NCBI GenBank assembly: GCA_903879915.1
Contig: CAIRNJ010000043.1
Coordinates: 15 to 64,014, forward strand
Reading direction: 5' to 3'
Length of the DNA: 64,000 nt
DNA from: an uncultured Elusimicrobia bacterium
GTDB taxonomy: Bacteria > Elusimicrobiota > Elusimicrobia > Elusimicrobiales > UBA9959
Shown here: one piece after another, positions 5,605 through 42,934 of the stretch
How positions within the stretch are numbered: the first letter of the stretch is position 1
How the letters are laid out: each line of letters begins with the position of its first letter
Notes under the pieces: model-generated
Databases searched by the model: none
The model's input: the letters and a program-made list of their open reading frames with translations, nothing else
Told to the model about the DNA's origin: nothing
Position numbers and translations under genes: made by a program

Positions 5605-5719
5605 GTTATATACAATTTACTAAATTTTACCCGCGGTTAGATATATTTTTCAATCCATTTTTTATATCATAATAATCAGGCCCGCGCGCTACGCGGGCCG
5701 AGACGGCAAGGAGCCACCC

Positions 5720-17848: not shown

Positions 17849-18778
17849 TCAGAACCCTATGCGGAAACCGAAACGGTGCACGCTGCCCAGGTCCCCGAAA
17901 GGCAGGAAAGCGTAATCCACGTCCAGGCCGGCCACTTTTACGCCGAAGCCGAGGCTTAGCCCCGCTTCGGAGCCGAGGTTGGCGGTATCGTAGCCGAACT
18001 TATAGCCGCCGCGCAGGGCGAAGCTCGGGCGGACCCAGTATTCCGCGCCCACGGCCGGGTAGATCTTTTCGTCCAGCAGATATTCGCTGACCTCGCCGGC
18101 CACGTTCAGGGCCTTCGAAGCTTTATAGAGCAGGCCGGCCCTCAGACAGACGGGCAGCGGATCGGCCTCCTCCTCGAATTTCATTTTCGTGCCGAAGTTC
18201 TGCAAGGCCAGCGAAAGGTTGATCTTCGGAGTGGCGCGGTAAATGGCCCCGACGTCCGCCGCCAGCGCGACGGCCGATTTATCGTATATCGTCGAGCGGA
18301 CCACTTTCACGGCGAAGCCGCCGTCCAGGCGCGGCAGCGCGCCGGGCATGACGTCCTTAGCCGCGTAAGCCAGCGTAACGGCCATGTCGCTGGAACCGAA
18401 AGTGCCCAGCTCGGGCACGACGCCGGCCGAGTCCGAAAGCCCGCGCCTTTCGATCCCTCCGACCGTAAGGAAAGTCGCCCCGAACCCGAACCGGCGGCCG
18501 CCCGCCGTGCCCGCGTAGGAAAGGTTCCCCATCTTGGCGTCCTGCAGGTAGGTCGAGAAATCCAGCGCGGCGGCCCGCCCGTCGAACTGGGCGAGACCCG
18601 CCGGGTTTATGAAGACCGCGCCGGGATCGTCCGCCTGGGCGCTGAAAGCGCCGGCCATGCTTACCGCGCGCGGGCTCATGGCCACCTTCAGGAAGTTAGC
18701 CGCCGTGGTGCCGGCGCCGGAAGCGTAAGCCCCGGCCGGCAGGGACAGCGCGATAGAAAGAATAAATAGCTTTTTCAT
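17849..18778 (-). CDS. PorV/PorQ-family (FadL-like) outer-membrane protein
   Basis: Signal peptide, then FLK....PRA..MAGAF.A.ADD..A.F.NPAGL. Also D.G..Y, QNFG, G.G......DYAF.PFGDLG..HRF and a terminal Phe. Confidence 0.85.
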   Translation of the reverse strand: MKKLFILSIALSLPAGAYASGAGTTAANFLKVAMSPRAVSMAGAFSAQADDPGAVFINPAGLAQFDGRAAALDFSTYLQDAKMGNLSYAGTAGGRRFGFGATFLTVGGIERRGLSDSAGVVPELGTFGSSDMAVTLAYAAKDVMPGALPRLDGGFAVKVVRSTIYDKSAVALAADVGAIYRATPKINLSLALQNFGTKMKFEEEADPLPVCLRAGLLYKASKALNVAGEVSEYLLDEKIYPAVGAEYWVRPSFALRGGYKFGYDTANLGSEAGLSLGFGVKVAGLDVDYAFLPFGDLGSVHRFGFRIGF

Positions 18779-18901: not shown

Positions 18902-21900
18902 CTACTTTATTATCGCCATCTTATGGGCCTTGCTGCCCAGCTGTTTGCCGTCCAGGTAGGTCAGCATGAAGTAGACGCCGGAGGCGCATTTCGCCCCGTT
19001 GTCGTTCCTGCCGTCCCACTCGGAATAATATATCTCCCCTCCGGCCCTGACCCCGTCGGTTATAGTGCGCACCTTCTCGCCGGCCACGTTATAGATGACG
19101 AACTTCATGTTCCCCGACTTCCCGGCGGGCAGGTGATACTTTATCAGCGTGCCGTAGGTGGCGTACGGATTGGCTATCCCGGACGCGCCTCTGTCGGAGC
19201 TCAGCGCCACGCTCTTGCTCTTCAGGTCGAACGGGTTGGGCATGTTGTACACGACGAAGCCCGCGCCCGCATAGGCCACGCCCGTGGGCGGCATGGCCGT
19301 GAACACGGCGAAGCGCCCGCTCTGTGTGGTGCTCGCGGCGGAAGGCACGTAGCGGCCGTTTACGACCGCGCTCATCCCGAGGCGCTTGCGGCCCAGCGGG
19401 GTGTCAATGCCGCCGGTCCCCTCGTGCGCGCCGGTCAGGGCGGCCACATCTACGGACAGCACGCCCAGCACCGGGTCCAGGGTGTAGTCGCCGGGCACCT
19501 CCAGCCAGCCGCCGGTAGCGGCGTCGTACTGGTAGATGCGCAGGTTGCCGTTCTCCGGCGCCTTGTTCTTATCGTAGGTCAGCGTCAGCGTGAACGGCTT
19601 ATTGATCGAGGCGTTCTCGAGCTCCATGTTATAGACCTCGGAAGCCATCAGGTCCTGTATGGCCTGCGCCAGGTTCAGGTCGCCCTTGGCGGTCCTGATG
19701 GTGCGCACAGCGGGCAGCCCGCTGAAGAAGCCGCCCACCAGCCCGTCCGAGGCAGAGGCGCGGTATACCGAGGAGCGGTAGCCCGAAGTACCGCTGGCGG
19801 TGCCGCTGGAGGTAAGCGCGCCGGCGTCCAGCTCGATGCCGGAATAGTCCCCGTTCCCGGGGTCCATCTGCACGTCTCCGCCCTGTATGGCCTCCTCCTG
19901 TATGTACTGCTCGGCCCGGCCCTGGTCGACGGAGCTGTAGATCACGGCCTTCTCCATCGTGTTCGCGCCGTCGCCGGCCGAGACGTACACGGTGTAGTAC
20001 AGCTGCGTGAGCGACTCGGTGAAGCGGCCCAGGTAGGTGTTGTTGGGCCCGGGCATCAGCGCCACGGCCGCGGCGTTGACGGCGTCGTACACCGCGCCCT
20101 CGTTCACCGTACAGACAGGCATGGAGACCAGCTGCTTGGGCGAGATGATGGTGACGTCCACCTGGCCGGCCCCGGCCGGGGACTTGATCACCGTCACTTT
20201 TATCTGCGGCGCCACCTCGCACATGACTATGTCCGGCAGGTAAGTGACGCCTTCCGTCACCGCGTCGCCGGCCACGTCGAGCGTTGCGGGCAGCTTGCCA
20301 GGGTAGAAGGCAGTGACCTTGTAGTTGTGCCCCGGCACCACGCCGGAGAGGTCGTAATCGCCGTCGTCGTTGGTGGTGGCCTCTATCTTGGCCAGGTACT
20401 CCGACGGATGCAGGGTGTTATAGGTCTCGTCGTAGGCCACTACTGTGACCCCCGCCGCCGTGAGCGGCGCCGGGAACTTGCTCAGGTACACCTTGCCCGA
20501 CATGTTCGACTGCGACGGCGTCAGGTAGAAGTCCAGCCGCGCGGAATCGTCGCCGGTCGGGGAACCGGCCAGAGAGGTCTTCTGGCCCGCTTTCACGAAA
20601 CCGTCGCGCGTTACTTCCAGGCGGTAGATGCCCGACGGCAGGCCGCTGAACCTGAAGGAGCCGTCGCCGGCCGTAGTAGTGAACTTCTCCACGGTCCGGT
20701 GCTTCAGGTATACCACGGCGTTGTCCAGGCCGGAGCCGGTCACGGTGCTCTTCACCGTACCGTAAATATCCCCGGTGCGCACGGTCTGCTCGTCGAAGTT
20801 GAACGGATAGCTGCCGTTATACGAGGAGGCGAGCGGCAGGGTTATCTCCTTGGTCACGGGCGGATAGTTGGGGTTGGAGAATACCGCCGTATAGCGCCCG
20901 GCCGCCAGGCCGGACACCATGAACCGGACGGGATGCGCCGCGAAATACGCCCGCACCAGGGCCTTGTCCTTGGTCTGCAGCGCGGCCTCGAAGTCCGCGA
21001 ACTGCGCGCCGCCGGGCAGGCCCGCGGAATACCCGCGCAGGTCGCCGGCCGCGTCATAGACCATCACGGCGGGGATCACCGAGTATATCTCGCTGAAGTT
21101 GGAGAATACGCGGTCCAGGTCGGCGTCGGAATAGATCCGCTCGCCGAGCATGGTCCCCTCCAGCAGCTCCGCGCCGGGCGCGCCGCTCACGCTGACCGGC
21201 AGCGGCTGGGCGTCGGTGCCCAGCCCCGCCGCGCTGGTGGAGCGCTGCACGGAGAAGCCGCGCACCTTGGCTATAAAGGCGGCGAAGTGGTCGTAGCTGG
21301 CGGGACTCCCGGCGGGAGCGTACCGCGCGCCCATCGTCAGGTAGAAGTCGTACTTCCCGATAAGCATCACTTTGGGGTCCCAGGTCTGCGTCGTGGTGCT
21401 GTAGCTGAAGGCGAAAACATCGTCGCCGAACAGCAGTTCGGTGAGCTTCTTCTGGCTCATGGCCACGCCGGATTCCACCGGGATCATACGGTAGGTCCAG
21501 GCCGGGGTAGAGATGACCGGCAGCGTGGAGCCCGAGACCTGCGGCTGCACCACCAGGCCGTCGGCCAGCTTCAGCGTGACCTGCGTGACCTTGCCGGGCA
21601 CTACGGCCACGTTGGACACTGCCGGCGCGGCCCAGCGGAAGCCCAGTCCGTTGGGCTTCATGGTCACGGTGTACAGGCCGGGCGCCAGGTTGGGGAACTC
21701 GAAGGCGCCGTAATCGTCCACGCTCCAGGCCTCGTTCACGTCCACGTTCTGCCCGCGCAGCAGGATGTCCAGGCTGTGGGCCTGCTCCTCAGGCAGGTTC
21801 GCGGCCGGCTTGTAGCTGGAGCCGTCCGGCATTTTTACCACGCCTTTGAGCGAACCGGCCTTCGTCACCACGAAGTTCATCGTAAGCGAAAGCGTGGAGG

Positions 21901-24900
21901 TGGACTTGAAATCAGCCCTGTCGTCGAAGGCGCTGACCTCGGCCCACTCGCTGGCGGTAACGCGGGTGTAGTACACCATGCCCGTGGACAGTTTTATGCT
22001 GTAGGTGGCCACGTTCACGGTATAAGTGCCGCTCAGCACCGCGAAGCCCATGGACCTGTCGGCGCAGATGCCGCTGCACTCCTGCAGCGCCATCACCGTC
22101 ACCGGGGCCACGGTGCTTATCACCAGCGGGTTCACCGCGCTCACGGTGTAGGTGGTCACGAACGTCACTGAACCGCTGAGCGCGGCGTAGTCGTTCTGCT
22201 TCTGGGGCATGATGTTGAAGTTGATATCCCCGTAGCTCTGGCAGGCGCCGCCGGCGGCCGCCAGTTTCCAGTTCCTGCCGGCGGTGCAGCCGGAGTTGGG
22301 CAGCCCTGCGGCGCCGGCGCTGGAGATCACGATGCGCGCGTCGTCGGCGTCTACCGCCGTCAGGTCCTGGTAGTTGCCCTCGTTGAGGTCCAGCCATTTG
22401 CCGAAGAACGCCACGCTCATGCGCAGCTGTCCGTCGGGCAGGCCGTTGAGCGTGGCCGGGCTGAACAGGAACGAGCCGTCGGCGGCCGTTCTGGCCTTGG
22501 CGTCCGTGTACATTCCTTTCCCGTTCTTGTAGGTATCGGACCCGCTGTACCAGCCGTAGTCCCCTACCACCAGCACGTCGGCGTTGGGCACAGGAACGTC
22601 CCTGTAGCGTATCACGCCGCGCAGGGTATAGGTGGCTTCCTGCAGCTGGAATTCGCGGTAGACGGTGGCGCCCGTAGAGACGGAGATCCCCTCGTACAGG
22701 CCGCGGTTATAGCCGGCCTTCTGCGCGGACAGGCTGTATGCCGCCGCGGTGCTTACCACGTTATAGAAAGAGTACTTGCCGTTCACGTCGGTAAGCGTTT
22801 CGTAGACGTTGTAGTCGCAGCTGCCGCTCGCACAGGGCTCCGTGGAATTCCACACCCTTACGCGCGCCGCTTCAAGGGGCGCCAGCGTCCGGGCGTTCCT
22901 TACCACGCCCTCCACCGAAGGCAGCGTAGTGGAAGCGCCCACTTCGAAGCCGCCTGCGGACGAGCCCGTTATGGTGGACATATTGACCACGTACAGGGAA
23001 ACGGCCGGGAAAGCCGCGCCCATAGGAACGCCGCGGGCGAGGCTCCGGCTGGGAATGGTCACGCCCAGCGTGTACGCGCCAGGGGCCGCGGGCGGCACGT
23101 TGCTGACCGTGAAGGTAACACTGCTGGCGCCTACGGCCACCTGCGCTATACCGTATGCCGCCCTCTCGCCGGTCTGCGCGAAGAAGACCTCCGCCATAAC
23201 GTAATCTCCGGCCGTGGCGGAAGTGACCGTCACGGTAAGCGGATAATACGGGGAGGCGGCGGGCCGCGGAGACAGGATATACTGCTTGGTGGCGTCGGCG
23301 TTAAGCTGCACGAAGTAGCTGCCGTAGGGGTCCATCTGCTGGGCCATTATGCCGGGCGCGAAGCCCTGCTTGTCCAGCGCGATGAAGTACTGCTTGCCGG
23401 CGGGCACCTGCGCGGTGTAAACGCCCGACGAGTCGGTCACGCCTCTGCGTATACCGGAGGCGTCGATGCCGCCGGTCTGCGAGTAGGGGACGAGCGACAC
23501 GCCCACACCGGGCAAAGGAGTGGCAACCGCCGCGCTGGAAACCTTCACGGTCAGCACGGGGTTTACGGTCAGGGCGCTGCTCTGCTTGTAGCGGTACAGG
23601 CCGTAGTAGCCGTTGAACTTGCCGCTCACGGAGACGAAGCCCATGGTCCCCACCGCCAGGTCGAAGCCCTCGTCGGAATTTGCGATCGTGCTGTAGGCGT
23701 CGCCCGCGATGGCGCTGGTGTAGAATTCCTGGCTCCACAGTTCGGAACCGGACCTGGAATACTTGCGTATCCAGAGGTTCTTGCCCTGGTTGATGTCGTA
23801 GCGTTCCTGCGAGCCGGTCACATAAACGCTGCCGGTAGTGTCAAGCTCGATGCCGTAGGCGGCGTCGTTGGCGTTGCCGGGGCTGTTGTAGAGCACCGGG
23901 AACGCCCAGTCGGCGGCACTGAGGTCGGCCGAGCTCTTGATCACAATGGCGTCGTTGGCGGTATCTGCGCTGCGCAGTTCGCCCGCTGTATAAACATAAC
24001 CGGAGCTGTCCACTGCCACGTCATAGCCTGCGCCCGCCGCGGCGCCGCCGGTGACGGCGGTACCGAGCTGGCCTAGATCGGACGTGCGGAAATGCCCGGT
24101 CCACAGCTGGGGGCCGTTCACCGACTGATACGCGGAACCGGCCAGGTACAGGTCGGTCCCACGCACGGCTATGCCATAGGCCGCGTCCGGCCCGCTGCCG
24201 CTGCCGGAGAAGTTAGCCGACGAAAGGATGACGCCGGCGGTACTGAGCTTGGCCAGGAAGATATTATCGCCCTGCGCGGAGCCGGTATAGACCGAGCCCG
24301 CGGCGTATACGTTACCTGACGCGTCCAGCGCCACGCCGTAGCCGGTATCGTCCCCGTGGGCGAAGTCGTAAACGGTCTTCCACACCAGGCCGCTGGCGCC
24401 GAACTTCATGACAAAGAGATCCTTGCCGTCGGCAGCCGCGGGACCGCGTTCATAGCCGGTCAGATAGAGATATCCGTCGGCGTCCGCGGCCATCCTGTTG
24501 GCCCTGACGGCGAAGGATTCGCCGGGGGCGTAGTACTTGGTCCAGACCGGGGTGAAAGCGGAGTTGAACTTCTTTATGATCAGGCCGCCGCTGCCGTTCC
24601 AGTCCGTATCGGCCACCATGTAAAGGTTGCCGGAAGCGTCGCGCGCCGCGCCGGGAAACTCTTTCTCCCCGTCGTTGTAGCGCTGCCCGCCGCCCGTAAC
24701 GATCAGCTTGGCCTCGTTCGGATACATGGACATAGCCGAGAAAGCCGAGCCTTCCGCAGGGCGGGCCGAAGCGGCGCGCACGCCCACAGGCGTGAAGGTC
24801 CCGGCCGAAGTCGAAACCCACACCTTGAAGTATTGCGTTACGCTTTCCAGCCCGTAAACCACGCGGGCCACGCTCATGCCTTCGCGTATGTCCGCGTCGG

Positions 24901-27900
24901 CCGCGTAGCGCACTTGGGCGCCGGACGAGTTCCAGCCGCCGTCGTATGTGGAGTACTGTACGCTGAAGACCGAGCCGGCCGGCACGTCGTACTGGCTCAG
25001 CCACTCCAGCCGCACGGAACCCGGCACGCCGTACGGAGCGGCCAGCACGTTGAAGTCGGGCTCCGGGAAGTAGTAGAAGCCGGGCCTGCCGTCCAGGGAA
25101 ACGGCGGAATAGACCCGCCCCGAAGCGTCCACGGCCAGCGCGGAGGCATAGTCGTCCCCGGCGGAAAGGTTAAGCCCGCGGCTCCACTCGGGTTCCCCGG
25201 CCAGGGTGAATTTGCGGTAACTGCTTACCCTGCCCTGTCCCGAAGAGGTTTCGTAGCCGGCGGCGATCGCTCCGCTGGTGGTGAGTTCCACCGCGTAGGC
25301 CGCGTCGTCCAGGTTGTCCTTGCCGTTATAATACCTGTCCCAGACCAGCGCGCCGCCCAGCGTGAATTTGAGCAGCGCGGCATTGCCGGCTGCGCTCACG
25401 GAAGCCGTGGAACCGGCCACGTAAACGAAGCCGGTGGTGGTTACGGCAAGGCCGTAGCCCGTGTCGTTGCCGTTGCCGGCGGAATTGAACACTATCGGCG
25501 CTCCGGGCAAAGCGCTGGTCTTGTTAAGGCCCTGCACGATAATGTCCTTGTTGGCGGCGCCGTTGTCCACGGTGCCCGTAAGGTAAACCGCGCCGGTACC
25601 CACGGCTATGCCGTAGCCGAAGTCGTCACCGCCGCCGGAGCCGTTCTTCGAATAGGTCCACAGCAGCGCGGGATAAGTGGACGGGGAAATATCGTATTTC
25701 CGCGCCAGTATATCCAGGCCGGCGGAGGCGCTGGAAGCGACGCCCACCACATAGAGGGCGCTGCCCTCCACGGCGGCGCCGTAAAGCTCATCCATGCGGT
25801 TCAGGCCGGAAGCGTCGGCCGAGTAGGACCAGACCAGGTCCCCGGCGGCGTTCAGCTTGGCTATCCAAAGGTCCTTATCGGCCGCTAAATCCTCGTACCC
25901 GGCCGCGGCGGCGGAGTCGCTCGCAGGCCGCTGGCTGCCTACCAGGTAGAAGTTGCCGGCCGCGTCGCGGACCACTTTGGCCACGTAATAGGCCCGGTCG
26001 TCCTTATGGTTGAAGAACTTCGTCCATTCCAGGGACTGGCCGGTGTTGTACTTGCGCAGGCCGAACCCGGCCGAAGCGCCGTCCGCGTAGCCGCCGAAGG
26101 CGTGGTACACGTAGGCGCCGTCAACGGCTATGCCGCCGTCGGGCCCGTACAGGCCGCTCATGAACGAAAGGCGCTCGCGTCCGAAATCCTGCGTGTTATC
26201 GTAGGCGCTGGGCGTTTTCGCGAAAGTCTGCGCCTCGGGCAGGGCCGTGGTCAGGCCGCCGCTGGTTATCCAGACCTTGAACTTGTACAGGTTGCCGCGC
26301 GTTTCCGCGCCTTCCAGGCCGGGATAGCGCAGCACGGGCAGGCCGCCCACCGTCTGCGTCTGCACCGCGCCGGGATACAGAGGCCCGGTGCTTACTACGA
26401 TCTGCGCCGAGGCGCTGCTCCACACCGGAGCGGAAGCGGTGCTGTACTGTACGTAATAGGTGGAACCGGCCGGCAGGGCGGCAGGGTAGTTCCACATCAG
26501 GTCCGCCGAGCCCGTATAGGGGCCTTCGGCGGCGGTAAAGAACTGCGCGCTGGCCGACGAGCCCTGCGGCATGGAGTACACGCCGAAGGCGCCCGCGAAC
26601 ATGCCTGACACGTGCGCATAGTTATCGCTGGAGACGAATACGTCCAGGCCGGCGTCGTGGCTGTCGGAGCCGGAATCGTAAACGCGGCCGAACAGGAACT
26701 GGCCGCCTGGCCCGAACTTGACCAGCAGCATGTTATAGCCCTGCCGCAGGTTCCACATGTCGGTGTAGCCCGAAATGTAGATATTCCCGAAGCTGTCGAG
26801 GTCCAGCCCGGCGGGGATGTCGTCGGAATTAGACTGCGCGTTGTTATAGCGGGCGGGGCTGGAGAACATAGCCGCGCCGTAGGGGGTATACCTGTTCAGC
26901 CAGATATTTTCCCCCTGGTTGAGGTCGTAGCGCTGCTCGGAGCCCGTCACCACCAGATTGCCGTTCATGTCGGCTTTGACCGCCAGGGCGCGGGAATTCC
27001 CTCCGCCCGCGTTGGAATACTGCACGGGCCAGTTGCCGGGCACGGCGGTGGAAATGGCCGCGCCGGTATCTGCGAACTTGCGCAGCGTGCCGGTCAGCGG
27101 GTAGCTGCCGGAGGCGCCCGCCGCGTAAACATACTTCCTTCCGGCGGCGTCCAGCGTGAAGGCGAGGCCGTTCACTTCGTCGTAGAGGCCGGGGCCGGAA
27201 GAGACGTCCAGGCTCGCGGCCAGGGCTAACGACGAGGCGTCGAGCTTGCGCAGCCTTATGCGGCTGCCGCCGGTCTCGCCGGAGTATTCGGTGGCCGCAT
27301 AGACGGCGCCCGCGCCGAAGGCCAGCGCTTTGGCCGTTTCGCTGGAGACGATGGGAAAAACATTCAGCACGGAGCCGTCCGCGCCTATTTTCACCACCAG
27401 GGCGGAGTACTCCTGCTGTACGAGAGCGTATGCGTTGCCGGCTCCGTCTACGGCCAGGTCCCTGAGGACCATCGGCGTTGTGGAGTCGTAATAGAGCGAA
27501 TATCCGCCGGGCGCGTTGAGCGCGATGAAGGAATCGCCGTTGCTCTCGAACGAAACGGCGGAATACATGCCCGCGGACGACCGGGCGTACCTGGCCCGGC
27601 TTTCAAGCCTGACGGACATGGAAGCGCTGGTCCTGAGCGCGGCGTCCCGGTCTTTCGCTTCGGTCTCCGGGAAGTACATGCTGGCAGCGGGGTTGGAGAC
27701 CGCGGACGTGCTGGTGCCGTTGAACAGCCACGCGGCGAAATAATACGGGAACAGGCGCGCGTTGACGATCACGGGCTCCAGCCCGGTAATGTTATGGCTC
27801 CATTTCTCCCCGGCGGTCACGCCGGCGATAGTTCCGGTAACGGTCTGAGCGTCGTAGACGTTCGGGCCTGCGAGATCGGCCGGGTTGGTGCTGTAGCGGA

Positions 27901-30900
27901 TCACGTAATGCCCGAAGGAAATGTCCTGCGGATAGGTCCATGACAGGTTGACATGGCGCAGGTTGGCGCCGGGCTCGGATGACAGGTCGGTCAGGCGGGC
28001 CAGGAATTTCACCAGTTTGGGAGCCGACGCGACGGGGTAGATAGCCTGCTGCGCCATATCGCCGGTTATGTCGAACGCGGCGGAGGAAGGCACGACCACG
28101 TTGATATTATTCCCCTCGCCGGCGAGGGCCGGCGTCAGGGTGATAAAGGTGCCCAGCGGGTTAGTGTCTATGATCCCGTCAGTTACCGGCAGGTCCACGA
28201 ACGCGGCCGCCACGGCCGCGCTGGAAACAAGGTAGTCCCCTGAATCCCAGACGCCGTTGGCGTTAGAGTCGAGATATAGTCCCACCGAGGCTATGTCGGA
28301 ATAGCTGCCCGACGGGTTAACACCGACCTTTACGCCGCGGATATCGGTAGCGCCGGTATTGGTGCGCAGGGTCACACTGAGCGCCGCGGCTTCCTGGCCG
28401 GCCAGGTAATAGGCCGGCGAAACGTCCGCGGTGGAAACGGACACGACCGGCAGCCGCCCGGACATCGGGGCGAACCTGAAGGTGTGCATGTCGGATTCGG
28501 AATCGAACCCTCCACCCGTGACATAGCTGTAGCCTGTGGCCGTATCCAGGGCCAGGGCGAACGGCAGGTAATTCCGTGAGATCTCGGGGCTGCTGGGCGC
28601 GCTGGAAATGAAGACCAGGTTCGGGCTGTACTTCAGCAGCGCCGGGCGGTCAACGCCGCCGCCGCGGCCGGGGCCGAAGTTGCGGCCGTTCCGCGGCGCC
28701 GGGAGCAAGGAACCGCCGTCATTGTCTTTGCCGACCGTATAAACATAACCTGCGGAATCCAGCGCCACGTCGAAGCCCAGCTGGTAATTACCGCCGGGGA
28801 AAGACGCGCTGGCGAGCTGCCGCAGGTTCTGGGAATACCTTACGGTAAGTATATGGCGGGCTTCTTCGCTGCCTTCGGTGCCGGCCAGGTAAACGTCGTG
28901 CGTGGCCGGGTTGACGGCGAGCCGCGCCCATTTCAGGCTTTCTTCGACATAGGCCCCCGAGTAGGAGGCCGAAGAGACGAAAGCCAGGTTGGCCGCGTTG
29001 AACCTGACGGTCACGAAGTTAGTGGCGCCGGCCAGCAGCGAAATGCCGGACATGTAGACGGACCCGCTGTCGGCGGCTATCCCGGCCGCGGACGCGCCCG
29101 TTCCGGCGCTGAAAGCGGCGGTAGAAGGGCCGGTAAGGTTCGGGCCGAACTTGGCCAGGCGATATTCCAGACTGTTGTCGGAAGTGCCCGACAGGTACAC
29201 GCCGCCGGCCGCATCCAGGGCCAGCATCGGGCTGTGCACGCCGGCTATCGTTGCCGACGAGACAAAGCGGAGGCCGAGGTCATACTTAAGCGCGACCGAG
29301 TTGTTCGCGCCACCCACGCCGCCGGCCGCGTAAACGCCGTTGGCGTTGACCGCCACGCCCTGCAAGTACATGCCGCCGGCATTGACCACCGTGGCAGAAG
29401 CCGTCATCACGCCGGAGGAGTTGTACTTCACCAGCAGCGCCTGTTCTCTGCCGGCCACCGAGGAAACGGCAGTCACGTAGAGGTCGCCGTTGGCCGGGTT
29501 GCGGGCTATGGCGGTGCCCAGGTCATAATCGGGCCCGGAGTAAACCGCGCCGCCGGCCTGAGAGAAGTCGCCGCTGAAAGCGCCGGCTATCGCCTGCACC
29601 GGCCTGGGAGCGGAGGTGATGGGGTAGATCGCCTGCTCGTCCATCAGACCGCCGACGATGAAGGAGGATGTGGAGTCTACGGCCACGTTCACGCTGGCGC
29701 CCGCCGCCGAGAAATAGGGGGTCAGCGTTACGAAGCAGCCGCCGCCCGTGGGGTATATCATGCCTTCCGCTATCGGCAGGGTCACTGCCGCGGCATCGAC
29801 GGCCGCGCTGGAGACCAGCGGGTCAGAAGTATCCCAGAGACCATCGCCGTTGGCGTCGCTATACAGGCCCACCGCGGCGATCTTGCCGTAATCACCGTTC
29901 GGGTTCACGTGCACCCGGATACCGGAAAGAGTAGTTTCTCCGGAGACGGTGCGCAGGGTCAGCTCCAGCGCAGCGGTTTCCTTGCCGGCCAGGTAAAGCT
30001 CGGGCGAGACGTCCCGGGTGGAAACGCGCACGATGGGCATAGAGCCGCCCAGCGGGTCGAAGCGCACGGTGCGCATGTTCCACTTGGGAGAATCTTTATC
30101 GCCCACGCCGGCCCCGAAGTCGATGCCGGTCACGTAGCTCTTGCCCGTGGCGGTATCCACCGCCACGCTGACGGGAGCATAACTGGTGTCGAACCGCATG
30201 GCGGCGCTGGACAGCAGGACCAGCGCGGAATTATACTTGGTCAACGCCGCATAATTCAGGCCGTCGAAAAGATTGCCCAGAGTATAAACGTTGCCGTCAT
30301 CGTCGAGCGCTACGTCCATGCCGGTAGCGTCGGCGCGCGGAGAAGCGGCCGCCGACAATTGCCGCAGGTCGGCGGAATACCGCAGCGTCAGGATAGAGCT
30401 GTCGCCTTTAGTCCCGCTGGTGCCCGCAAAATACACCTCATGCGTGTTCGCGTTAACCGCCAGTTTCTCGCTGCCCAGGCTCATGCCGCTGAGATAAGCG
30501 TTTGCGTACGCCGCGGAGGAAAGGAAGGCCATGGACGAAGAGTCGAACCTGGCGGTCACGAAATACGAGGTCCCGGCTATCAGACTGTCGCCGGTGATAT
30601 AAACGTTCCCGCCGTCAACGGCTATGCCCCGGCCGCTGTCCACGCCGCCGGCGTTAAAGATGACAGGGGACCCCTGCTGCGCGAGGTCGGAGTCGTACTT
30701 CACGAACTTATAATCGTTCTGGCTGCCAAGTTCGCCCGTGTTGGAGCCGACCACATAAACATTGCCGTCGGTATCCAGCGCCAGGTCCATAGCGTGGTTC
30801 TCTCCGGGAAGCACCGCCGCGGAACTGAGCACCAGGTCATGGCTGTATTTCGCGGTAACGAAGCCCGCCGGGCCCTTGCCCGCCGCGTAGACGCCGCTGG

Positions 30901-33900: not shown

Positions 33901-36900
33901 CGCTGCCGCCGGCCCACACGAAGATCAGCGAGCCGGAACCGCCGTCGATGCCGCGCCCTTCGCCGATGGATTCTCCGACGGGCAGAGCGGTGCCGGTGGC
34001 CACGCTCACGCAGTCGCCCGGCGCGGGCCACTGGCACTGGCCGTCGTTGTCGATCTTCTGTACCGCCACAGCCATGCCGGCGGCCGAGGGATAACCGAAC
34101 AGCGCGAAGAAGCCGCCCTGCGCGTTGGCTGTGAATTCCCCGCCCTCTACGGCGCCGCTGGAGATCTGCCTGCCGCCGGTCCCCCACAGGTGGGCGCCGG
34201 CCGCGTTATACCGCTGCGCGCGCGCCGCGCCGCTGCCGTCAAACCAAGCCGCTATCACGCCGCCGGAACCGTCGGAGGCCGCGAAAAGCTCGCCGTTGTC
34301 TTTGATCGGATAATAAGCGGGAGTTATGGGCGTGGGGCCCCAGAGGGGCGTATTATCGGCGCCTACGCGTTCAACGAACATCTGGCGGAGGCCGCCCGCG
34401 CCCACCGTGCTGTCGTACACCATGTACGCGCCGCCCGCGCCGTCGGGGACCATCCGGAAACCGCTGGACCCGTCCGAGGCGCCTTTCGTCGCCGGGGCTA
34501 TCGGGTATATGGACTGCTCGGCCATGCCGGCGCCGAACGTGAACGCGTAATGAGAAAGGATCTCGAGGCCGATAGTTCCGCCGTTAGGCGTAACCGCGAC
34601 GAAATACGCGGCCGTCCGCGTGCTCACCGTCTCGTCGGGGAACGAGAACGAATGGTCCGTGACGCCGCATTCCAGCGTAGAGCTGGAAACCAGCCTGTCG
34701 CCGGCGTCCCACGTATCGTTCTGGTTCTGGTCGTGATACAAAGCTATGGCCCGGATACTGCACGAGTCACCGCCGGTGTTGACGCGCACGGCCATGCCGG
34801 AGAAGGTGGTTTCGCCCTGATCGGTGCGGGGCGTTATGGAAAGCGCGGCCGCCTCTTCGCCTTTCATGTAATACATCGGAGAAACGTCGCGGGTGGAAAG
34901 AGACACTACGGGCGGAGAGAAGCCCCCCAGCGGCGCGAAACGCACGGTGCGTATGTCCGCCGGGCGCAGTTTATCGTCGCTCATGCCGGTCACGTAACTG
35001 GTGCCGTCAGCGCTGTCGAGAGCGATGCCGGTCCCGAGGTAGCCGCCTCCGGCGGGCATGCTGGCGGCGCTGGAAAGGAAAACCAGCGCGGGGGTGTACT
35101 TCGCCACCAGCGCGTTGTCGTAGGAGCCGTCATAGTCTTTGCCCAGCGCGTAAACGTACCCGTCAGCGTCCAGGGTCACGTCCATGCCCAGGCCGTAATT
35201 GCCGCCGGGGAAGACGGCTGTGCCCAACTGGAGCAGGTCCCGGGAATAGCGTACCGTCAGCATCTGCCTGTTATCCTCACCGCCGCGCGTGGCGGCCAGA
35301 TAAACATCGTGCGTGGCCGGATTCACGGACAGCTTCCCGCTGCCGGGAAGACCGGAGTTATAATAAGCGTCGGTGTACGCCGCGGAAGAAAGGAACGCCA
35401 GGGCGGAATCGTACCTGGCGGTCACGAAAGAAGTGGCCCCGTCGATAAGGCTGGTGCCGGTCACATAGATATCGCCACCGTCCGCCGCTATGCCGCTGCC
35501 GCTGTCGGCGCCGCCGGCGTCGAAAGTGACCGGCAGACCGACCTGGTTCAGGTCAGCGTCGTATTTCACGAACTTATAATCGTTCTGGCTATCCGGCTCT
35601 CCGGCATTGGAACCGATCACATAAACGTTGCCTTCGGCGTCCAGCGCCAGGTCCTTGGCGTGGTTATCGCCGGGGAGAACCGCCACGGAACTGAGGCTCA
35701 GGTCGTAATCGTACTTCGCGGTCACAAAACCCGCGGGCCCCTTGCCCGCCAGATAAACGCCGTTGGCGTTAACGGCCACGGCGTCGAAAGATTCGGCGCC
35801 CTCAAAAGCGGAGGAGGATACGAAGGTCCCTTCGAGGTCGTACTTAATAACCACCGCGCCGCCGGGCGCGGACAGGCCGGCTACATAGACGCTGGAGCCG
35901 TAGAACGCGGCTCCTAACCCCATGTCCGTATCGCCGCCGTTGTAAACCGCGCCGCCGGGCTGGGAGAAATTGCCGGAGAAAGCGGAGGTGCTGTACTGGG
36001 CCAGTTCCAGGTCGATGCCGCTCTGTTCAAGCAGCTCGGAGTTGACCGCCAAAGATCTCTCGCCGTAGTACTCGCCGCCGTCCAGGTCGTGGTTCTCGTT
36101 CGCGTCTATCCAAGCCTTGAGGCTATAGCCCACGGAGCTGGACGCGATCCAGGTGGTATACGCGCCGGTGGAAGGCAGCGTCACCTCGTTGTACGGGTTG
36201 CCGGGCTCGAAGGGCGCTGCCACAAGGAGTACGGGGCCGTTCTGCGGCGCCAGGATAGTGCCGCTCACCTGGCCGAAATCGCGAAGCGTGATGTTGACGC
36301 TCTCCGCCGCGGCGCCGGCGGGCAGGTAAAGAGGCTCGGACATGAACTTGCCGCCGCCCGCTGACAGCGAATCGTACGCGCCGCCAGGCATACCCGCGGT
36401 GTGCCCGCCCGAACCCAGCCACGCCTGTATGTAATACGTGTTAGGAGTGAGCAGCCCGGTAAAACTGTAGCCGCCGGGAACTTCAAGCGTCTGAGAGCTG
36501 TAAGTCAGGTCTTCAGGATATATATCGCCGGCTATCGTCGAGATGGCGATATGGAACAGGCCCTGCTGCTGGCCTTCGTAATAGATATTGCCGGCTATGG
36601 TACCGGTATATTCGGGTACGCTGGTGCCCGCGGGGATCGCTCTCAATACGGGCAGGTCGGACCCGCCGGTCTTGGTCTTCCAGCCGGTCAGCGCGCCGCC
36701 GGCTCCGTCGGACACGATATCGATACGCAGGCAGTCGGGAGCCATGCCTGCCACATAGCCGTTAGTGAACGAAAATTTACCGCTCTTGTCCATCTTCTGG
36801 TAATCGATCTGGTGGAAATTGCCGGGAGGCAGCAGCGCCCACTGGTTCCAGGCGAAATGATACGCCGAGCCGTCATAGATCAGGCCCAGCGTGTCGTCTA

Positions 36901-39900
36901 CCGCCTGGCCGGCCAGTTTTCCGTCCAGCGCCCAGCCTGCAGAGAATGCGTCTGCGGTGGCGGACGAGCGCACTATGCGCACTTCGGCCTTGCCTTTGCC
37001 GCCGGTGGAATACAGCACCGCGAAACCGTCCTCGTCCCTCGCCAGGCTTATTTCATACCTGTTCCCGTCGATGGCGTTGACATAGGAAGAAAGCTGCAGC
37101 GCGTTATTCCAGCCGGGGTAAGGGTCGCCGTTGACGTCGAACCGCTCCCCGAACAGCGCCTGCGCGCCGCCCGTAGAACTGGTCCACACCACGTAAGCGC
37201 CGTTAAGTCCGTCGCTGATGCCTTCCACGTTTCCGCCTTCGTCGCTGCTGGTGGGCGCCGACAGGGTCTTGCTCCACGCCAGCGTTCCGTCCGCCGCTAT
37301 TTTGGAGCCGAACAGCGCCATCCTGCCGCCGTTGCCGCCGGCCCACACGAAGATCAGCGAGCCGGAACCGCCGTCGATGCCGCGGCCTTCGCCTACGGAG
37401 TCGCCGACGGACAGAGCGGTGCCCGTGGCCACGTTAACGCAGTCGCCCGGGGCGGGCCACTGGCACTGGCCGTCGTTGTCGATCTTCTGTACCGCCACCG
37501 CCATGCCGGTGGCCGAAGGATAGCCGAACAGCGCGAAGAGGCCGCCCTGCGCGTTGGCCGTGAATTCCCCGCCCTGGGTGGCGCCGCTGGAGATCTGCAG
37601 GCCGCCGGTCACCCACTGGTGGGCGCCGGACGCGTTATACCGCTGCGCGCGGGCCACGCTGTTGCCGTCGAACCACGCCGCTATCACGCCGCCGGAACCG
37701 TCGGCGGCCGCAAAGAGATCGCCGCTGTCTTTAACCGAACGATAGTAAGGGGTTATAGCCGTGGACCACAGGGGCGTGTTATCTGCGCCCACGCGCGCCA
37801 CGAACACCTGGCGGAGGCCGCCCTCGGCCACCGTGCTGTCGTAGACCATGTACGCGCCGCCCGCGCCGTCAGGCACCATCTTGAACATGCTGGAGCCCTG
37901 GCCGAAGCCTTTAGGCGCCGAAACTATAGGGTATACGGACTGGTCGGCCATGGCGGCGCCGAACTTGAAGGAGGCCCGGGAGTAGACCGCCACTTTCAGG
38001 CTGTCGCCGCCCGTGGGGGTAACGGTTATAAAATACGCGGTCTTCTGCGTGCCGACGGTTTCGCCGGGAACGAAGGTGACGTTCGCGGAGCAGTTCAGCG
38101 CGGCGCTGGAAACAAGCCGGTCGCCGGCGTTCCAGACATCGTTATGGTCCGTATCGTAATACAGCGCGGCGGCGCTGAAGGCGCAGGTGTTCCCGCCGGG
38201 ATTGAGCGCCACGGTCATGCTGGAGAACAGTGTCTCGCCCGAGTCGGTGTAAGGAGTAATGCTGAGCACGGCAGCCTCTTCGCCCTTCATAAAATACTCC
38301 GGAGAAATGTCGGCCGTGGAAAGATACACTACCGGCTCGACAGAACCGCCCAGCGGCTCAAAGCGCACGGTGCGCATGTTATACGAAGAAGGCACCTTAT
38401 CGGCACCAAAGTCAATTCCGGTCACATAGCTGTTGAGCGTGGCGGTATCTACTGCGATACTGGCGGGAACATACCCGGTAGCAAACCTCTGAGTGGCGCT
38501 GGACAGCAAAACCAGGCTGGGGTTGTATTTGAGCACCACCGCATAATTCTCACTGTCGACATCCTGATTTATGCCGAGCGTGTAAACGTTCCCGTAAGTG
38601 TCAAGAGCTATATCACCGCCCTCCGCATAGAAGTGGCGGAACACGGCCGTAGACAATTGCACCAGGTCCGGGGAATACTTTATCGTCAGGATATTCCCGT
38701 CAATTGTATCGGTCGGCGTGCCGTATGAGCCCGCGAAGTAAACTTCGTGCGTGACGGAATTAACGGCCAGCTTTTCGCCGCCCGGATTATCGGCGCCGGC
38801 ATAATCACTTACGTACGCAACGGAGGACAAGAACACCATCGACGAATTATACTTGGCCGTAATGAAATAGGTGGTCTGGCCGATAAGGCTGTCGCCCGTG
38901 ATGTAGATGTTCCCGCTGTCGACCGCTATGCCTTTGCCGCTGCCTGTGCCGCCGGCATTAAAGGCGACCGGCAAGCCCAGCTGATTCAGGTCCGCGTCGT
39001 ACTTCACGAACTTGTAACCTGTCTGGACGTCATTTGCGCCTACGACATAAACGTTGCCGTCAGTATCCAGCGTCAGGTCCCGCGCGTTGGACTCGCCGGG
39101 AAGGACGGCCGCGGAACTGAGTACCAGGTCATGGCTGTATTTCGCGGTAACGAAACCGCCTGCGCTCTTGCCGGCCGCATAGACGCCGTCGGCGTTCACG
39201 ACCACGGCGTTAAAAGACTCCAGTCCGGCCATAACCGCGGAAGACACGATGGTCCCCTCAAGATCGTATTTGAGCACTACGGCGCCGGACGGCGCGGACA
39301 CCCCGGCCGCATACACATTGGAACCGTAGAACGCTGCCCCAAAACCGCCATCCATATCTCCGCCGTCGTAAACCGCGCCGCCGGGCTCGGAGAAGCTGCC
39401 CATGAACGGCTGGGGCGCCGGCTGGCCGCCCAGCGGCTCAAAGCGCACGGTGCGCATGTCGAATTTGGCCTGGTTCTCCCAATTGCCGTCCGAAGCGTAC
39501 AGGCCCGTCATATAGGCGTAACCCGTGGCCGTAGCCAGCGCCACTCCCATCGAGTCATACCCGTAGGGCTGCACGCTGGCCGCACTGGAAAGGAAAACAA
39601 GGCCGGGATCGTATTTCAGCAGCGCGGCATAATCCTCGGCTCCGGAGTTGTACGAACCGGCGATATGGACGTTCCCTTCGGCATCTAGCGCCAGCCCGGT
39701 GGCCTGGGCATACCGCGAGGGGTTGGAGAAATGTCCGATCGCCTGCTGGGCCGCCAGGTCCCGGTCGTATTTAAGCGCCAGGACCGTGTCTTTGGCCGAA
39801 TTGCCGGCAAAATAAACGTCATGGGTGACCGGGTTCACGGCCAGTTTCTCGCCCACCGGGGAGTTCGCGTCCACGGACACCGGCCCGGTATAGGCGATGG

Positions 39901-42900
39901 ACGAGACGAGTACCATCGCGGAAGAGGCGAATTTGGCGGTCACGAAATAAGTAGTGCCGCTCTGCAGGCTGTCGCCGGTGACATAAATGTAACCGTCGTC
40001 ATAAGCGATGCCCTTGCCGCCGTCCACGCCGCCCGCGTCGAAGAGCACGGGCGCGCCCAGCTGGGCCAGGTCCGCGTTGTATTTCACGATCTTGTAGTCG
40101 TTCTGGCCGCCGGGTTCTCCGGCGTTGGAGCCGATCACGTAAACGTTGCCGTAGTTATCCAGCGTCAGATCCCTCGCATGAGTATCTCCGGTAAGGACCG
40201 CCGCGGAGCTGAGCACAAGACTGTGGTCGTATTTCGCGGTCACGAAACCGGTAGAACCCTTGCCCGCCGCGTAGACGCCGTTGTCGTTGACAGCCACGCC
40301 GTCGAACGATTCCAGCCCGGACAGAGTGGCGGAAGACACCATGTTGCCGGCCAGGTCGTATTTGATCACGACAGCGCCGGCAGGCACGGTCATCCCGGCT
40401 ACATATACATTCGCGCCGTAGAGGGCGGCCGCGAACCCAACATCCATATCCCCGCCGTCAAAATTCACGCCGGTACTTTCCGAGAAAGCGCCGGTAAACC
40501 CGTTCTCGGTAGTCGCCGGGAGCATCCGTTTCAGGCCCGGCAGATCGTCGCCGCCTATGCTCATTTTCCAGCCGGCCAGCGCGCCGCCCGTGCCGTCGGG
40601 CGCGATCGCGGAGTTCACGGGCGCCCGGAAAGTCCCGACCATAGAACCGTCCGCGTAGGCGTAATTCCCGGCCTTGTCCATTTTCTGATAGTAAACTTTA
40701 TATGCAGGCGGCTCCCAGGTGCTCCACACAAAATGGTAAGCGGAAGAGGAATAAATAAGAGTGGTAGGGGTCCAGCCAAAACTGCCGATACCGGCGAACT
40801 GCCCGTTCTGCGCCCAGCCGGGCGAAAATTCGGCCGCGGCGGATGACGCACGCACTATGCGTATCGCGTTGTTGCCGGTGGAATAAAGCACCGCGAAGCC
40901 GTCCTCGTCCTTCGCTATCTTCATACTGTACTCGTTCGTCGCCAGATAATCGGAAAGCTGCAAAGGAACGCTCCAGCCGGCGGAAGCGTCGCCGGCAGAA
41001 TCGAACCGCCCGGCAAAAAGCCCCTGCCCTCCGCCCATGGAACTCGTCCACACCAGGTAAACGCCGCCCGCGCCGTCGTTCATTCCTTCGACAGTGGCGC
41101 CCTCGTCGCCGCTGGACTGCGCCAGCAGCTTCTTGTTCCAGGCCAACGTGCCGTCCGCCGCCACTTTCGAGCCGAAAAGCGCCAGCCTGCCGCCGTTGTT
41201 GCCGGGCCAGGCGAACAGCAGGGAGCCGGAGCCGGCGTCTACGCCGCGGGCGTTGCCGTTGAAATCCCCGGTCGGAATAACTGTTCCGGTAGACTCGGTC
41301 ACGCAGTTCCCCGCGGACGGCCACATGCATATTCCGTAATTATTGACTTTCTGTACCGCCACCGTCATACTGTTGCCGGCCGGATAGCCTAACAGCGCGA
41401 AAAAGCCGCCCTCGGAGTTCTCATGGAATTCTCCGCCCAGAACGGCGGAACTGGAGATCTGCCTGCCGCCCGGGTCCCACTGCTCAGAGCCGTCCGGCGT
41501 ATAACGCTGCGCGTAAGCGATACCGTCGCCTTCGAACCACGCGGCGATGACGCCGCCGGCCCCGTCGGAGCCCGCGAAAATATCGCTGCTTTCCCCCGCG
41601 TAATAAGCCGAAGAAACGGCCACCGGGCCCCACAGAGGGGAATTATCGGCGTCCCGGCGCACCGCGAAGATCCTGCGCAGGCCGTCTTCGGCCACGGTGC
41701 TGTCGTAGACCAGATACGCCCCGCCCGCGTTGTCGGGCACCATCTGGAACTGCTTGGACCCGTCCACGCCGCCGCCGAGGCCGCCGCCGGGCGCGCTGCC
41801 GCTCGAGGTCAGGTTGATGCGCCTGGTCACGATATTGTCGGAGCTGGTGCCGGTCACGAAAACATCGGAGGAACTCAGCACCGCCATGGAGTCGCCGGAA
41901 AGCCCGGCGTAGACCGACTTCACGTTAAGGGCGGAGTCCAGACGGTAGGTGTTGGCATAGAACGAGACATAAGGCGTATGCGTATTGAAGTCAACGGCCA
42001 CCGCGCCGAACGCCCAGGCGCCGGGGAGCGTAGTGGAGGATTTGACCGTAAGGTCGACGGAGCTGTATTTCAGGAGCACGCCGTAGGCCACCGGGCCAGA
42101 AGAGGAAGTGCCCAGAACGTAAAGGTCGTTCGTAACGGGGTCGAGCGCCATGCCGCTGGACTGATTGCGTACTCCTCCGGAAAACGTGGTCGACGACTGC
42201 ATGCTCAGCGAATCGCTATATTTATAGGTGACGAAGAGCGGGATGGCGGTCATGGCGACCGATCCCTCCCGGTAGCCCAGGCCGACGAAAATACTGGCAG
42301 GGGTCCCGTCCAGAACGGCAATACTTTCCGAAGTATCAAAATAGCCGGAGGGATTGCGCACGACCACGGAACCCGCCGGGGACAGATCTCCCGTAAATCT
42401 GTACAGCGCGACGCCCGAGGCTCCGGTGTAAACGAGCGCGTACACATACTCCACCCCGCCCGAATAACCTACCGCGATGGCGCCGACGTTAGCGCTGGCC
42501 ACGGTCGCGGACGAGAGCAGGTTCAGGGCCGGATTATACTTCATGATGCGGCCGGCGCCGAAAGCCTGGCCGCTAACGAAAAGGTTCCCGGCCTGGTCCA
42601 CCGCCGCCCCTCCGGCATAATCCATGGCGGGCGTGCTCACGGCGGCCGAAGCCAGCTTCACGCCCATCATGTTGTACTTTATGACCGCCCAATCGTAACC
42701 GCCGGCGCCCTGGGAAGAAGAACCGACTACATAAAGGAAAGGCCCGCCGCCCGCGGTATGCGTGTCTATAACGACTTTTTTTACGCGGTCCGAACTGCCG
42801 CCGTCGTAAACCGCGCCGCCCGGCTGGGAGAAGTCGCCGGTGAACGAGGCTTGGGCAAGGGCCGTTCCGGAGGAGCCGGCGGCGAAAAGCGCCGCCCAGA

Positions 42901-42934: not shown

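Follow-up and report, generated by a model that had tools for sequence, protein, structure and literature searches.

A giant multi-propeller protein of an uncultured Elusimicrobia bacterium, a candidate surface adhesin with its own outer-membrane barrel

Attachment of proteins through the T9SS (type IX secretion system) of Porphyromonas gingivalis involves outer-membrane barrels, PorZ being held on PorQ and PorU on PorV. The adhesin SprB of Flavobacterium johnsoniae is bound to SprF and type B cargo to PorP-like barrels, according to passages of one report (PMC9143113), and the genes of cognate shuttles adjoin those of type B substrates, as stated in a passage of another (PMC12618676). Self-cleavage at His-Phe|Ser has been described for the MAIN (microbial GAIN-like) domains, in the part of that work at hand (bioRxiv 10.64898/2026.05.12.724683), and passages of a survey place Elusimicrobia among the phyla rich in proteins of more than 5,000 residues (PMC11573180; bioRxiv 10.1101/2023.11.21.568195). 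Here we describe a gene for such a giant protein from an uncultured Elusimicrobia bacterium (order Elusimicrobiales), located in a stretch of 64,000 nucleotides (assembly GCA_903879915.1, contig CAIRNJ010000043.1, positions 15 to 64,014), which is called the window and to which all coordinates refer. The protein consists of a modular head, a conserved stalk and a C-terminal tail, and we consider it, with a probability of roughly 60%, a giant multivalent cell-surface adhesin docked to its own outer-membrane barrel. Among the papers listed by a literature search on Elusimicrobia giant proteins, PorV and T9SS there was nothing on this protein or on type IX-like anchoring in the phylum, and public records, where they name homologues, say 'hypothetical protein'.

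On the minus strand, 18902-42934 begins with ATG and stays open for 8,010 codons, and it constitutes one real gene for an 8,010-residue protein. A search for RNA data sets containing this stretch listed none. Its G+C content of ~60-65% is like that of the flanks over the whole gene, and the surroundings are chromosomal (valyl-tRNA synthetase, NAD-dependent DNA ligase, PurH and a HemN-like radical SAM enzyme). The genome that carries it, G000 below (other G, P and L labels denote relatives, homologues and loci), measures 3.37 Mb in 112 contigs, is 99% complete, and includes the window as contig C43. Read by eye, the N-terminus shows a basic stretch followed by a hydrophobic one that closes with ALAQA, with no cysteine in the signal segment; this N-terminus is kept in G002, G011, G103, G145 and P0002.

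The modular head and its variation among relatives

Module copies were located by BLASTP of 300-residue chunks of the protein against the whole protein, and by hidden Markov models (HMMs) built from the protein's own copies, which are circular for the giant protein and informative only for its relatives. The head follows the signal-like segment, comprises 17 modules over ~4,950 residues and ends at residue 4980. Module A (~360 residues) occurs seven times, with starts at residues 31, 813, 1177, 2319, 3460, 3941 and 4453 and 27-69% identity between copies; module B (~425 residues) three times, at 391, 1679 and 2818, with 55-82% identity; module C (~140-150 residues) four times, at ~1541, 2681, 4301 and 4831, with 39-55% identity to the first copy; and module D (~213 residues) twice, at 2106 and 3246, with 63-72% identity. 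The module HMMs cover the head gap-free and detect no further strong copies; with Big_5 included, the modules follow one another as A B A A C B D A C B D A Big_5 A C A C. Within it lies a tandem repeat of [A C B D] x2 with a period of ~1,142 residues (A starts at 1177, 2319 and 3460), of which the B and D parts are most alike (72-82%) and the A and C parts less so (55-58%). The head grew through internal duplication. Its features are the following.

42845..42934, minus strand: start codon and signal-peptide-like segment, residues 1-30 (MRKIKNIF...ALAQA), read by eye from the translation
41765..42844, minus strand: module A1, SBBP-type propeller, residues 31-390 (chunk BLASTP, module HMM, alignment)
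40499..41764, minus strand: module B1, predicted 8-bladed propeller type, residues 391-812 (BLASTP, HMM; 54-55% identical to B2)
39407..40498, minus strand: module A2, residues 813-1176 (chunk BLASTP, HMM, alignment)
38315..39406, minus strand: module A3, residues 1177-1540 (chunk BLASTP, HMM, alignment)
37901..38314, minus strand: module C1, predicted beta-sandwich, residues 1541-1678 (chunk BLASTP, HMM, alignment)
36620..37900, minus strand: module B2, the modelled copy, residues 1679-2105 (AlphaFold2, fold searches)
35981..36619, minus strand: module D1, residues 2106-2318 (chunk BLASTP, HMM, alignment; AlphaFold2 confidence below 50)
34895..35980, minus strand: module A4, the modelled copy, predicted 7-bladed propeller, residues 2319-2680 (AlphaFold2, best match 7ron_A)
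34484..34894, minus strand: module C2, modelled beta-sandwich of 7-9 strands, residues 2681-2817 (AlphaFold2 confidence ~85)
33200..34483, minus strand: module B3, residues 2818-3245 (BLASTP, HMM; 78-82% identical to B2)
32558..33199, minus strand: module D2, residues 3246-3459 (BLASTP, HMM; 75% identical to D1)
31466..32557, minus strand: module A5, residues 3460-3823 (chunk BLASTP, HMM, alignment)
31139..31465, minus strand: Big_5 bacterial immunoglobulin (Ig)-like domain, residues 3824-3932 (PF13205 at E 4.4e-6; 27.8 bits, cut-off 23.6)
30035..31114, minus strand: module A6, residues 3941-4300 (chunk BLASTP, HMM, alignment)
29579..30034, minus strand: module C3, residues 4301-4452 (chunk BLASTP, HMM, alignment)
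28445..29578, minus strand: module A7, residues 4453-4830 (chunk BLASTP, HMM, alignment)
27995..28444, minus strand: module C4, the last head module, residues 4831-4980 (chunk BLASTP, HMM, alignment)

A preliminary description, made from the letters of the window, had listed the same modules (seven A, three B, four C and two D) with their starts, opening motifs and order. Every copy was recovered by chunk BLASTP, the nucleotide starts, once converted, differ from the BLASTP residues by no more than a few codons, the alignments show the motifs in each copy, and the order was reproduced exactly by the module HMMs, with the circularity mentioned above; the Big_5-like domain it had named scores above the PF13205 cut-off. 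Its reading of A and B as propellers also stood, since both of the tested types fold as propellers in AlphaFold2 models searched with Foldseek and with a wide VIA search (in which rows within 1 Z count as tied). Its figure of ~13 propellers corresponds to seven A, three B and three in the stalk, the stalk ones being counted from Pfam, NCBIfam and HMM matches only. Equally, no catalytic or toxin domain, of which it had recognised none, was found in the giant protein by Pfam, NCBIfam and PDB sequence searches.

Of the 36 sequences behind the B2 model, three are paralogues, two are copies from G002, four are relatives within Elusimicrobiales and 27 are distant relatives belonging to other phyla. 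The model is all-beta with ~30 strands, a predicted local distance difference test (pLDDT) of 85.8 and a predicted template modelling score (pTM) of 0.89. The top matches in Foldseek and VIA are all propellers, with 7t1y_B (Z 25.5, root-mean-square deviation (rmsd) 3.1, 312 residues aligned), Ika8, a designed protein (Z 24.4), and BamB (Z 23.4) as the best, and Cake8 and Fbw7-type propellers are also among the best matches at Z 23-25.5, the natural ones of which we take to be 8-bladed. The consensus of the 36 sequences has eight repeats of ~52 residues. Module B, which has no Pfam, NCBIfam or PDB sequence match, is thus modelled as an 8-bladed propeller. The family of this propeller extends far beyond the giant protein: with a limit of E <= 0.001 the B profile matches 63,003 cluster representatives, with one of E <= 1e-30 it matches 14,248, and 314 of 508 pattern matches on genome contigs, from many phyla, were confirmed by tblastn. 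Pfam assigns no family to B2, and among the 36 members 14 match DUF1491, eight match DUF4114 and one matches the WDR35 propeller model (E 6.5e-4). Judged from these profile matches, the B-type propeller is a very large family uncaptured by any Pfam propeller model. A blade motif, DGxGG..W.D.R....DIYAQR, was seen in the distant members (L019-L092). The 74 loci of other phyla contain 78 B-bearing frames whose 3' end is complete, and 45 of these (at 41 loci) end in the same kind of tail as the giant protein by a narrow tail HMM; no PorV-like frame was found within the 3-kb flanks of any of these 45.

Module A was modelled in the segment D1-A4-C2, from an alignment of 21 sequences. The family SBBP (PF06739, cut-off 20.5 bits) is matched with 54.8 bits over residues 1-4500 and 60.6 bits over residues 4001-8010, and the A profile matches, by sequence, PknD/Pizza NHL propellers and CylK in the PDB (E 1e-15 to 5e-10; CylK E 3.5e-12). 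The A4 model (pLDDT ~90, ~29 strands) is matched best by the CylK propeller 7ron_A (Z 42.0, rmsd 2.3, 331 residues aligned, 16-18% identity) and next, at Z 30-34, by WD40 and designer propellers with seven blades, including the '7-bladed designer protein' 7bid_A (Z 30.5, 259 of its 286 residues aligned). By model, module A is a 7-bladed propeller of the SBBP/NHL type. The C2 model (pLDDT ~85) is a beta-sandwich of 7-9 strands, and the Atlas neighbours of module C are clusters without names. For module D, Atlas, a language-model search, lists prealbumin-like CarboxypepD_reg/SdrD_B/SpaA clusters at 0.85-0.91, below the recognition mark, which we treat as a lead only. Neither C nor D has a Pfam match at E <= 1 or a usable PDB profile match, the best PDB profile E values being 0.13 and 0.82, respectively. 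An integrin-headpiece arrangement of A and C was considered and rejected as too loose (Z 29-31 but rmsd 6-8 Å).

Strong B-bearing giant frames are present in 7 of the 201 Elusimicrobiales genomes searched, G000 included; any B match at E <= 1e-10 is found in 13, the other six being ~100-residue matches in frames of 460-560 residues. A stalk search added P0002, P0005 and P0006. In the head strings below, x denotes a stretch that matches none of the four module HMMs.

G000: 8,010 residues; head of 4,980 residues, with all 17 modules as given above
G002, a different species: 3,685 residues, ending at the contig end before the stalk; same order through the twelfth module
P0002: 5,444 residues; stalk 68% identical to that of G000; head A A x A x A C
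G011: 5,701 residues; stalk 60% identical; head (b) A A' B A A C
G103 and G145: 4,569 and 4,571 residues; stalk 56-57% identical; head A A' B C
P0005: 4,426 residues; stalk 46% identical; head x A C A
P0006: 4,899 residues; stalk 44% identical; head A A' A A x

The stalk (residues 4981-8010) aligns as one collinear high-scoring segment pair at 56-68% identity in P0002, G011, G103 and G145, and at 44-46% over ~2,850-2,950 residues in P0005 and P0006. The head takes up 4,980 residues in G000 against ~1,410-2,625 in the others, and the module sets differ. A conserved stalk of ~3,030 residues is thus combined, among relatives, with a head that varies in length and modules, which is what the preliminary description had proposed as a variable head on a conserved anchor. 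The frames of G026 and G089, from other genera (6,765-6,776 residues), have only the last ~130 residues and scattered modules in common with the giant protein. As side observations, P0002 contains a ~380-residue repeated domain (residues 761-1150 and 1513-1886) and P0005 an N-terminal segment (residues 1-412) that looks, by eye and from its repeat pattern, like a parallel beta-helix; both types are absent from the G000 head.

In G011, G103, G145 and P0002, as in G000, a C module directly precedes the stalk. A tree was built from 23 A modules (HMM matches over more than 250 model positions and above 50 bits, the weak stalk copies and partial copies being left out), and every copy from G000 is paired there with its orthologue in G002; the partner of A7 is the final A of the G011 head (98/99 support). 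This pairing implies that the expansions predate the split of G000 and G002 and that the stalk-proximal A-C pair is old. Between these two genomes the head modules are 86-96% identical and the two upstream genes 98.3% and 98.7%, which suggests, on two genes only, that the head diverges faster than neighbouring genes.

Stalk, tail and the adjoining barrel gene

The remaining 3,030 residues are divided as follows.

23573..27994, minus strand: stalk part 1, residues 4981-6454, three units of a ~100-residue beta domain and an SBBP-type propeller (SBBP, NF047494 and A-HMM matches)
19907..23572, minus strand: stalk part 2, residues 6455-7676, beta-sandwich region with CarboxypepD_reg-like domains (PF13620)
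19295..19906, minus strand: pre-tail domain, residues 7677-7880, akin to the domain that bears HFS/HLS in paralogous tail proteins
18905..19294, minus strand: C-terminal sorting/docking domain, predicted, Ig-like, residues 7881-8010 (FlgD_ig, PF13860, 32.8 bits against a cut-off of 27)

The three units of stalk part 1 start at residues 4981, 5465 and 5964 and contain weaker SBBP/A-like propellers (residues ~5158-5411, 5685-5944 and 6087-6378 by the A HMM, with an SBBP match in each third); the SBBP model of the LipL53 family matches the stalk across three stretches at E 2.2e-28. The three FN3-like (fibronectin type III-like) plus propeller units of the preliminary description are therefore borne out in their propellers and not in the FN3 label, for which the ~100-residue domains give only sub-threshold matches (Pur_ac_phosph_N E 0.08, fn3_SORL1 E 0.11, Tissue_fac E 0.11) and the PDB profile search no match. 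Since the units are 25-40% alike, the term 'non-repetitive', used there for the stalk, is true only relatively. The carboxypeptidase-regulatory-like domains and the C-terminal domain it had named both pass their family cut-offs: PF13620 scores 102.2 bits over three stretches (cut-off 32.3) and has a further match at residues 6673-6765 (34.2 bits), the matches including 7390-7453 and, weakly, 7518-7554, and FlgD_ig scores as listed. A search of residues 6455-7880 for a hidden catalytic domain gave as its only match a carboxypeptidase D regulatory domain (E 0.3), and PF22904, which is listed for homologues, has no match in G000 at E <= 0.1.

The tail is encoded next to a barrel. The genes that flank the giant gene are the following.

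17849..18778, minus strand: downstream gene, 309-residue outer-membrane barrel of the PorV/PorQ family (NF033709, 156.6 bits against a cut-off of 90)
43016..44266, minus strand: upstream gene, 416-residue exported protein with the C-terminus ...LEWEF (translation)
44313..45758, minus strand: upstream gene, 481-residue exported protein with a FecR domain, LipL45-like (PF04773, 64.9 bits)

The 416-residue protein has no Pfam or NCBIfam match, and its C-terminal ...LEWEF looks like the ending typical of outer-membrane barrels. Both upstream genes are in synteny in six of six relatives examined, the 416-residue gene always between the FecR-like and giant genes. The cassette FecR-like/416-residue/giant/PorV-like is kept in all five relatives in which the 3' end is covered; in G011, G103 and G145 it also includes a gene for a 220-residue protein, and its first four proteins are 66-72% identical. 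In the other genera represented by G089 and G026, the FecR-like, 416-residue and PorV-like genes are kept at 30-33% (the G026 barrel is partial). Just upstream of the cassette in G103 (L093, 2946-6662) and G145 (L095, 2939-6599) lie paralogues (27-33%) of the PorV-like, 416-residue and FecR-like genes, in that order, so that cassettes appear arrayed.

The pairing of tail and barrel is repeated within the genome. In G000 there are 24 NF033709 matches, 18 of them over the cut-off (two in one frame pass only when summed), and ten FlgD_ig tails; with HMMs of the giant protein's tail and its barrel, 15 tail frames (tail 0-14 residues from the stop) and 22 PorV-like frames were counted. A PorV-like frame directly follows, on the same strand, 12 of the 15 tail-bearing frames (contigs C4, C6, C24, C37, C41, C43, C55, C58, C59, C61, C62 and C92; e.g., G000:C41:22674-29590). 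A second giant frame of 5,692 residues (G000:C58:2872-3162, minus strand) ends in the same kind of tail. When the giant protein's tail and the downstream barrel were modelled together from alignments made for this analysis, the complex scored 0.94 versus 0.01 for the best of three controls; the three runs share 90% or more of their contacts, the partner's pLDDT is at least 84, and the mark for this score is reached by 58 of 80 solved complexes and by 2 of 110 mismatched pairs. On this model the tail probably docks in the downstream PorV/PorQ-family barrel.

The domain before the tail is of interest for the question of release. It aligns with the paralogue domain at an hhalign probability of 88-93% (E 4e-7), and in eight of the 15 tail-bearing frames (on C24, C37, C41, C4, C92, C61, C59 and C55) that domain carries HFS or HLS 103-122 residues from the end. 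In the giant protein A-L-T is aligned opposite the H-L/F-S of the paralogues, and H[FLIVMY][ST] is absent from its last 340 residues. The three stalk-sharing orthologues compared have G-L-S, S-L-D and C-L-D at that site, while G089 and G026 retain H-L-S and H-M-S. We give even odds to a loss of self-cleavage in the lineage of the giant protein.

Adhesin and competing explanations

How would such a protein work? In the reading that we prefer, a giant multivalent adhesin docked to its own barrel, the signal-peptide-like segment would direct export, after which the tail would dock into the barrel encoded immediately downstream. The barrel would hold the giant protein on the outer membrane, in the way PorZ is held on PorQ or SprB on SprF. 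The stalk would keep the head away from the cell, and the head propellers would make up a rapidly evolving, multivalent array that binds ligands carried by particles or other cells. For the head by itself, a multivalent binding role is predicted with odds slightly better than even.

Several observations weigh against this reading. The tail scores below the cut-offs of both type A and type B cargo models (TIGR04183, Por_Secre_tail, 16 bits against 23; CHU_C, PF13585, 17.4 bits against 27), and complexes of this kind are already solved, so that the complex score may show likeness to PorV-cargo complexes and not binding. As to the secretion machinery, G000 has a SprA-like frame of 1,837 residues (G000:C91:33586-35055, minus strand), with 74 bits against the TIGR04189 cut-off of 200 (E 3.7e-21), which possibly represents a divergent pore for tail-bearing cargo; the PorU model matches only parts of tails in this genome, with no PorU-type sortase, and the searches for GldM and SprA_N gave no match there, being silent in the control genomes as well. 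Enzymes contain propellers as well, and it is an enzyme, CylK, that gives the nearest solved structure to module A. Roughly half of stalk part 2, including large parts of residues 6455-7572, has no family match in Pfam or NCBIfam, and module D was modelled from a shallow alignment with a pLDDT of 25-52, mostly below 50. Finally, among the 32 pieces listed of 111 short-read assembly pieces aligned with the head, none spans the interior of B2 (37180-37468) or of B3 (33748-34039).

Three other functions may be proposed for the same architecture. The protein could be a structural surface coat, S-layer-like or an envelope scaffold, in which propellers and sandwiches build a lattice or spacer; its very large size, its beta-rich structural domains with no enzyme domain, its dedicated membrane anchor and the many tail-bearing cargo proteins of G000 would all suit such a role. 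We consider it unlikely, since strong B-bearing homologues in 7 of 201 genomes are patchy for a core envelope component, and both the roughly three-fold variation of head length and content among close relatives and the faster divergence of the head than of its neighbour genes fit a ligand-facing role better. A protein that is released or shed, its tail being a removed secretion signal as in the type A cargo of Bacteroidota, would act off the cell or linked to lipopolysaccharide. The resemblance of the tail to T9SS type A/FlgD_ig Ig-like tails speaks for this, as does the HFS/HLS motif of eight of the 15 tail-bearing frames, given as the MAIN self-cleavage motif in the part of the source at hand (bioRxiv 10.64898/2026.05.12.724683); yet the giant protein and its stalk-sharing orthologues lack that motif, G000 has no PorU-type sortase that we could find, and a dedicated barrel gene beside each cargo together with the complex model suggests retention, so that release seems improbable here. 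It appears very unlikely that the propellers of the head are enzymes arrayed on the cell surface, whether hydrolases, lyases or CylK-like alkylases. The Z of 42.0 to the CylK propeller and the sialidases, glycoside hydrolases and polysaccharide lyases in the Foldseek lists of A and B point in this direction, but the identity to CylK is 16-18% over a match that covers only its propeller (chain residues 249-655), no hydrolase or lyase family is matched by sequence, and for module B the non-enzymatic WD40, lectin and BamB propellers score about equally.

A different objection concerns the gene itself, as the module order of a repeat-rich gene could be an artefact of assembly. It draws on B2 and B3, which are 93% identical in DNA over a stretch of 300 nucleotides and at which the short-read contigs break exactly, and on odd joints in the contigs of two runs. 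The other head repeats are just 60-86% identical in DNA. Logan contigs from three other samples of one study and one sample of a second study were aligned with 26500-43200; those of the first study bridge each of the 17 junctions between neighbouring modules, as well as that of head and stalk, with at least 31 nucleotides on each side and no mismatches, at an even depth of ~6-12x, and the strain of the second study, ~97% identical, bridges many module boundaries. The piece between the breaks in B2 and B3 begins and ends inside a B module and can therefore only sit in tandem. Since the boundaries are bridged and G002, assembled from another species, has the same order, an artefact is extremely unlikely. 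The odd joints, in runs X3 and X4, connect 41784 to 36304 with 14 extra letters and leave 255-nucleotide loose ends at both places (36304-36321 and 41767-41784); they may stem from a co-occurring strain with a different arrangement, or from a related gene.

The adhesin reading can be extended, tentatively and with more doubt than belief, to a display mode undescribed in Elusimicrobiota, in which each cargo would have its own PorV-like barrel and maybe a very divergent SprA-like pore in place of canonical type IX machinery, the head would be a quickly reshuffled collection of two propeller classes and a programmable multivalent receptor for other cells, and attachment would be permanent. If this were true, the lost self-cleavage motif would make the attachment permanent and not releasable, and the receptor would serve for attaching to partner, host or prey cells. 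A surface array of ten head propellers and three stalk propellers, its head rebuilt between close relatives, would give a handle on how free-living Elusimicrobia touch their surroundings, and the proposed one-cargo-one-barrel anchoring lies outside the phyla known for type IX secretion.

Comparison with known systems

The giant proteins surveyed so far resemble this one in exceeding 5,000 residues, in belonging to a high-propensity phylum and in repeating beta-propeller and adhesion-type domains (PMC11573180; bioRxiv 10.1101/2023.11.21.568195, in the passages at hand); those passages contain neither the giant protein nor its module grammar or anchor, and the supplements of the papers may list the protein or its homologues. 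Among SBBP proteins, e.g., the Leptospira LipL53 family (NF047494), module A and the stalk propellers are alike in passing SBBP and in partly matching NF047494. The giant protein, on the other hand, has ten SBBP propellers per chain and is not a lipoprotein, and its 99 bits against the NF047494 cut-off of 400 mean that it does not belong to the LipL53 family. CylK provides the solved fold nearest to module A, with 18% identity, and its N-terminal domain is absent from the giant protein.

MAIN domains share with the pre-tail domain a position between ectodomain and anchor, as that work describes it (bioRxiv 10.64898/2026.05.12.724683), and the pre-tail domain is related to the paralogue domain that carries HFS/HLS. 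The giant protein itself differs in lacking His-Phe-Ser, and a kinship to MAIN, which would run through the paralogue domain, is putative.

The anchor has its closest parallels in two T9SS arrangements. As in PorZ-PorQ and PorU-PorV, a barrel of the PorV/PorQ type would hold a protein through a retained Ig-like C-terminal domain, the docking being here predicted by a model; unlike there, each cargo tends to have its own barrel gene (12 of 15), and the cargo is an 8,010-residue multi-propeller protein and not a part of the secretion machine. With SprB-SprF of F. johnsoniae and other type B cargo, as described in passages of the two reports (PMC9143113; PMC12618676), it shares a giant adhesin-like protein, a C-terminal docking domain, an adjoining barrel gene of its own and many cargo-barrel pairs per genome. 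The barrel, however, is of the PorV/PorQ family (NF033709 only) and not PorP/SprF, the tail fails CHU_C, SprB repeats are absent, and the organism is an elusimicrobiotum, with no T9SS core component found above cut-off in G000. Because the tail fails both sequence models, the giant protein is a member of neither type A nor type B cargo; we infer that it works like them without being one of them.

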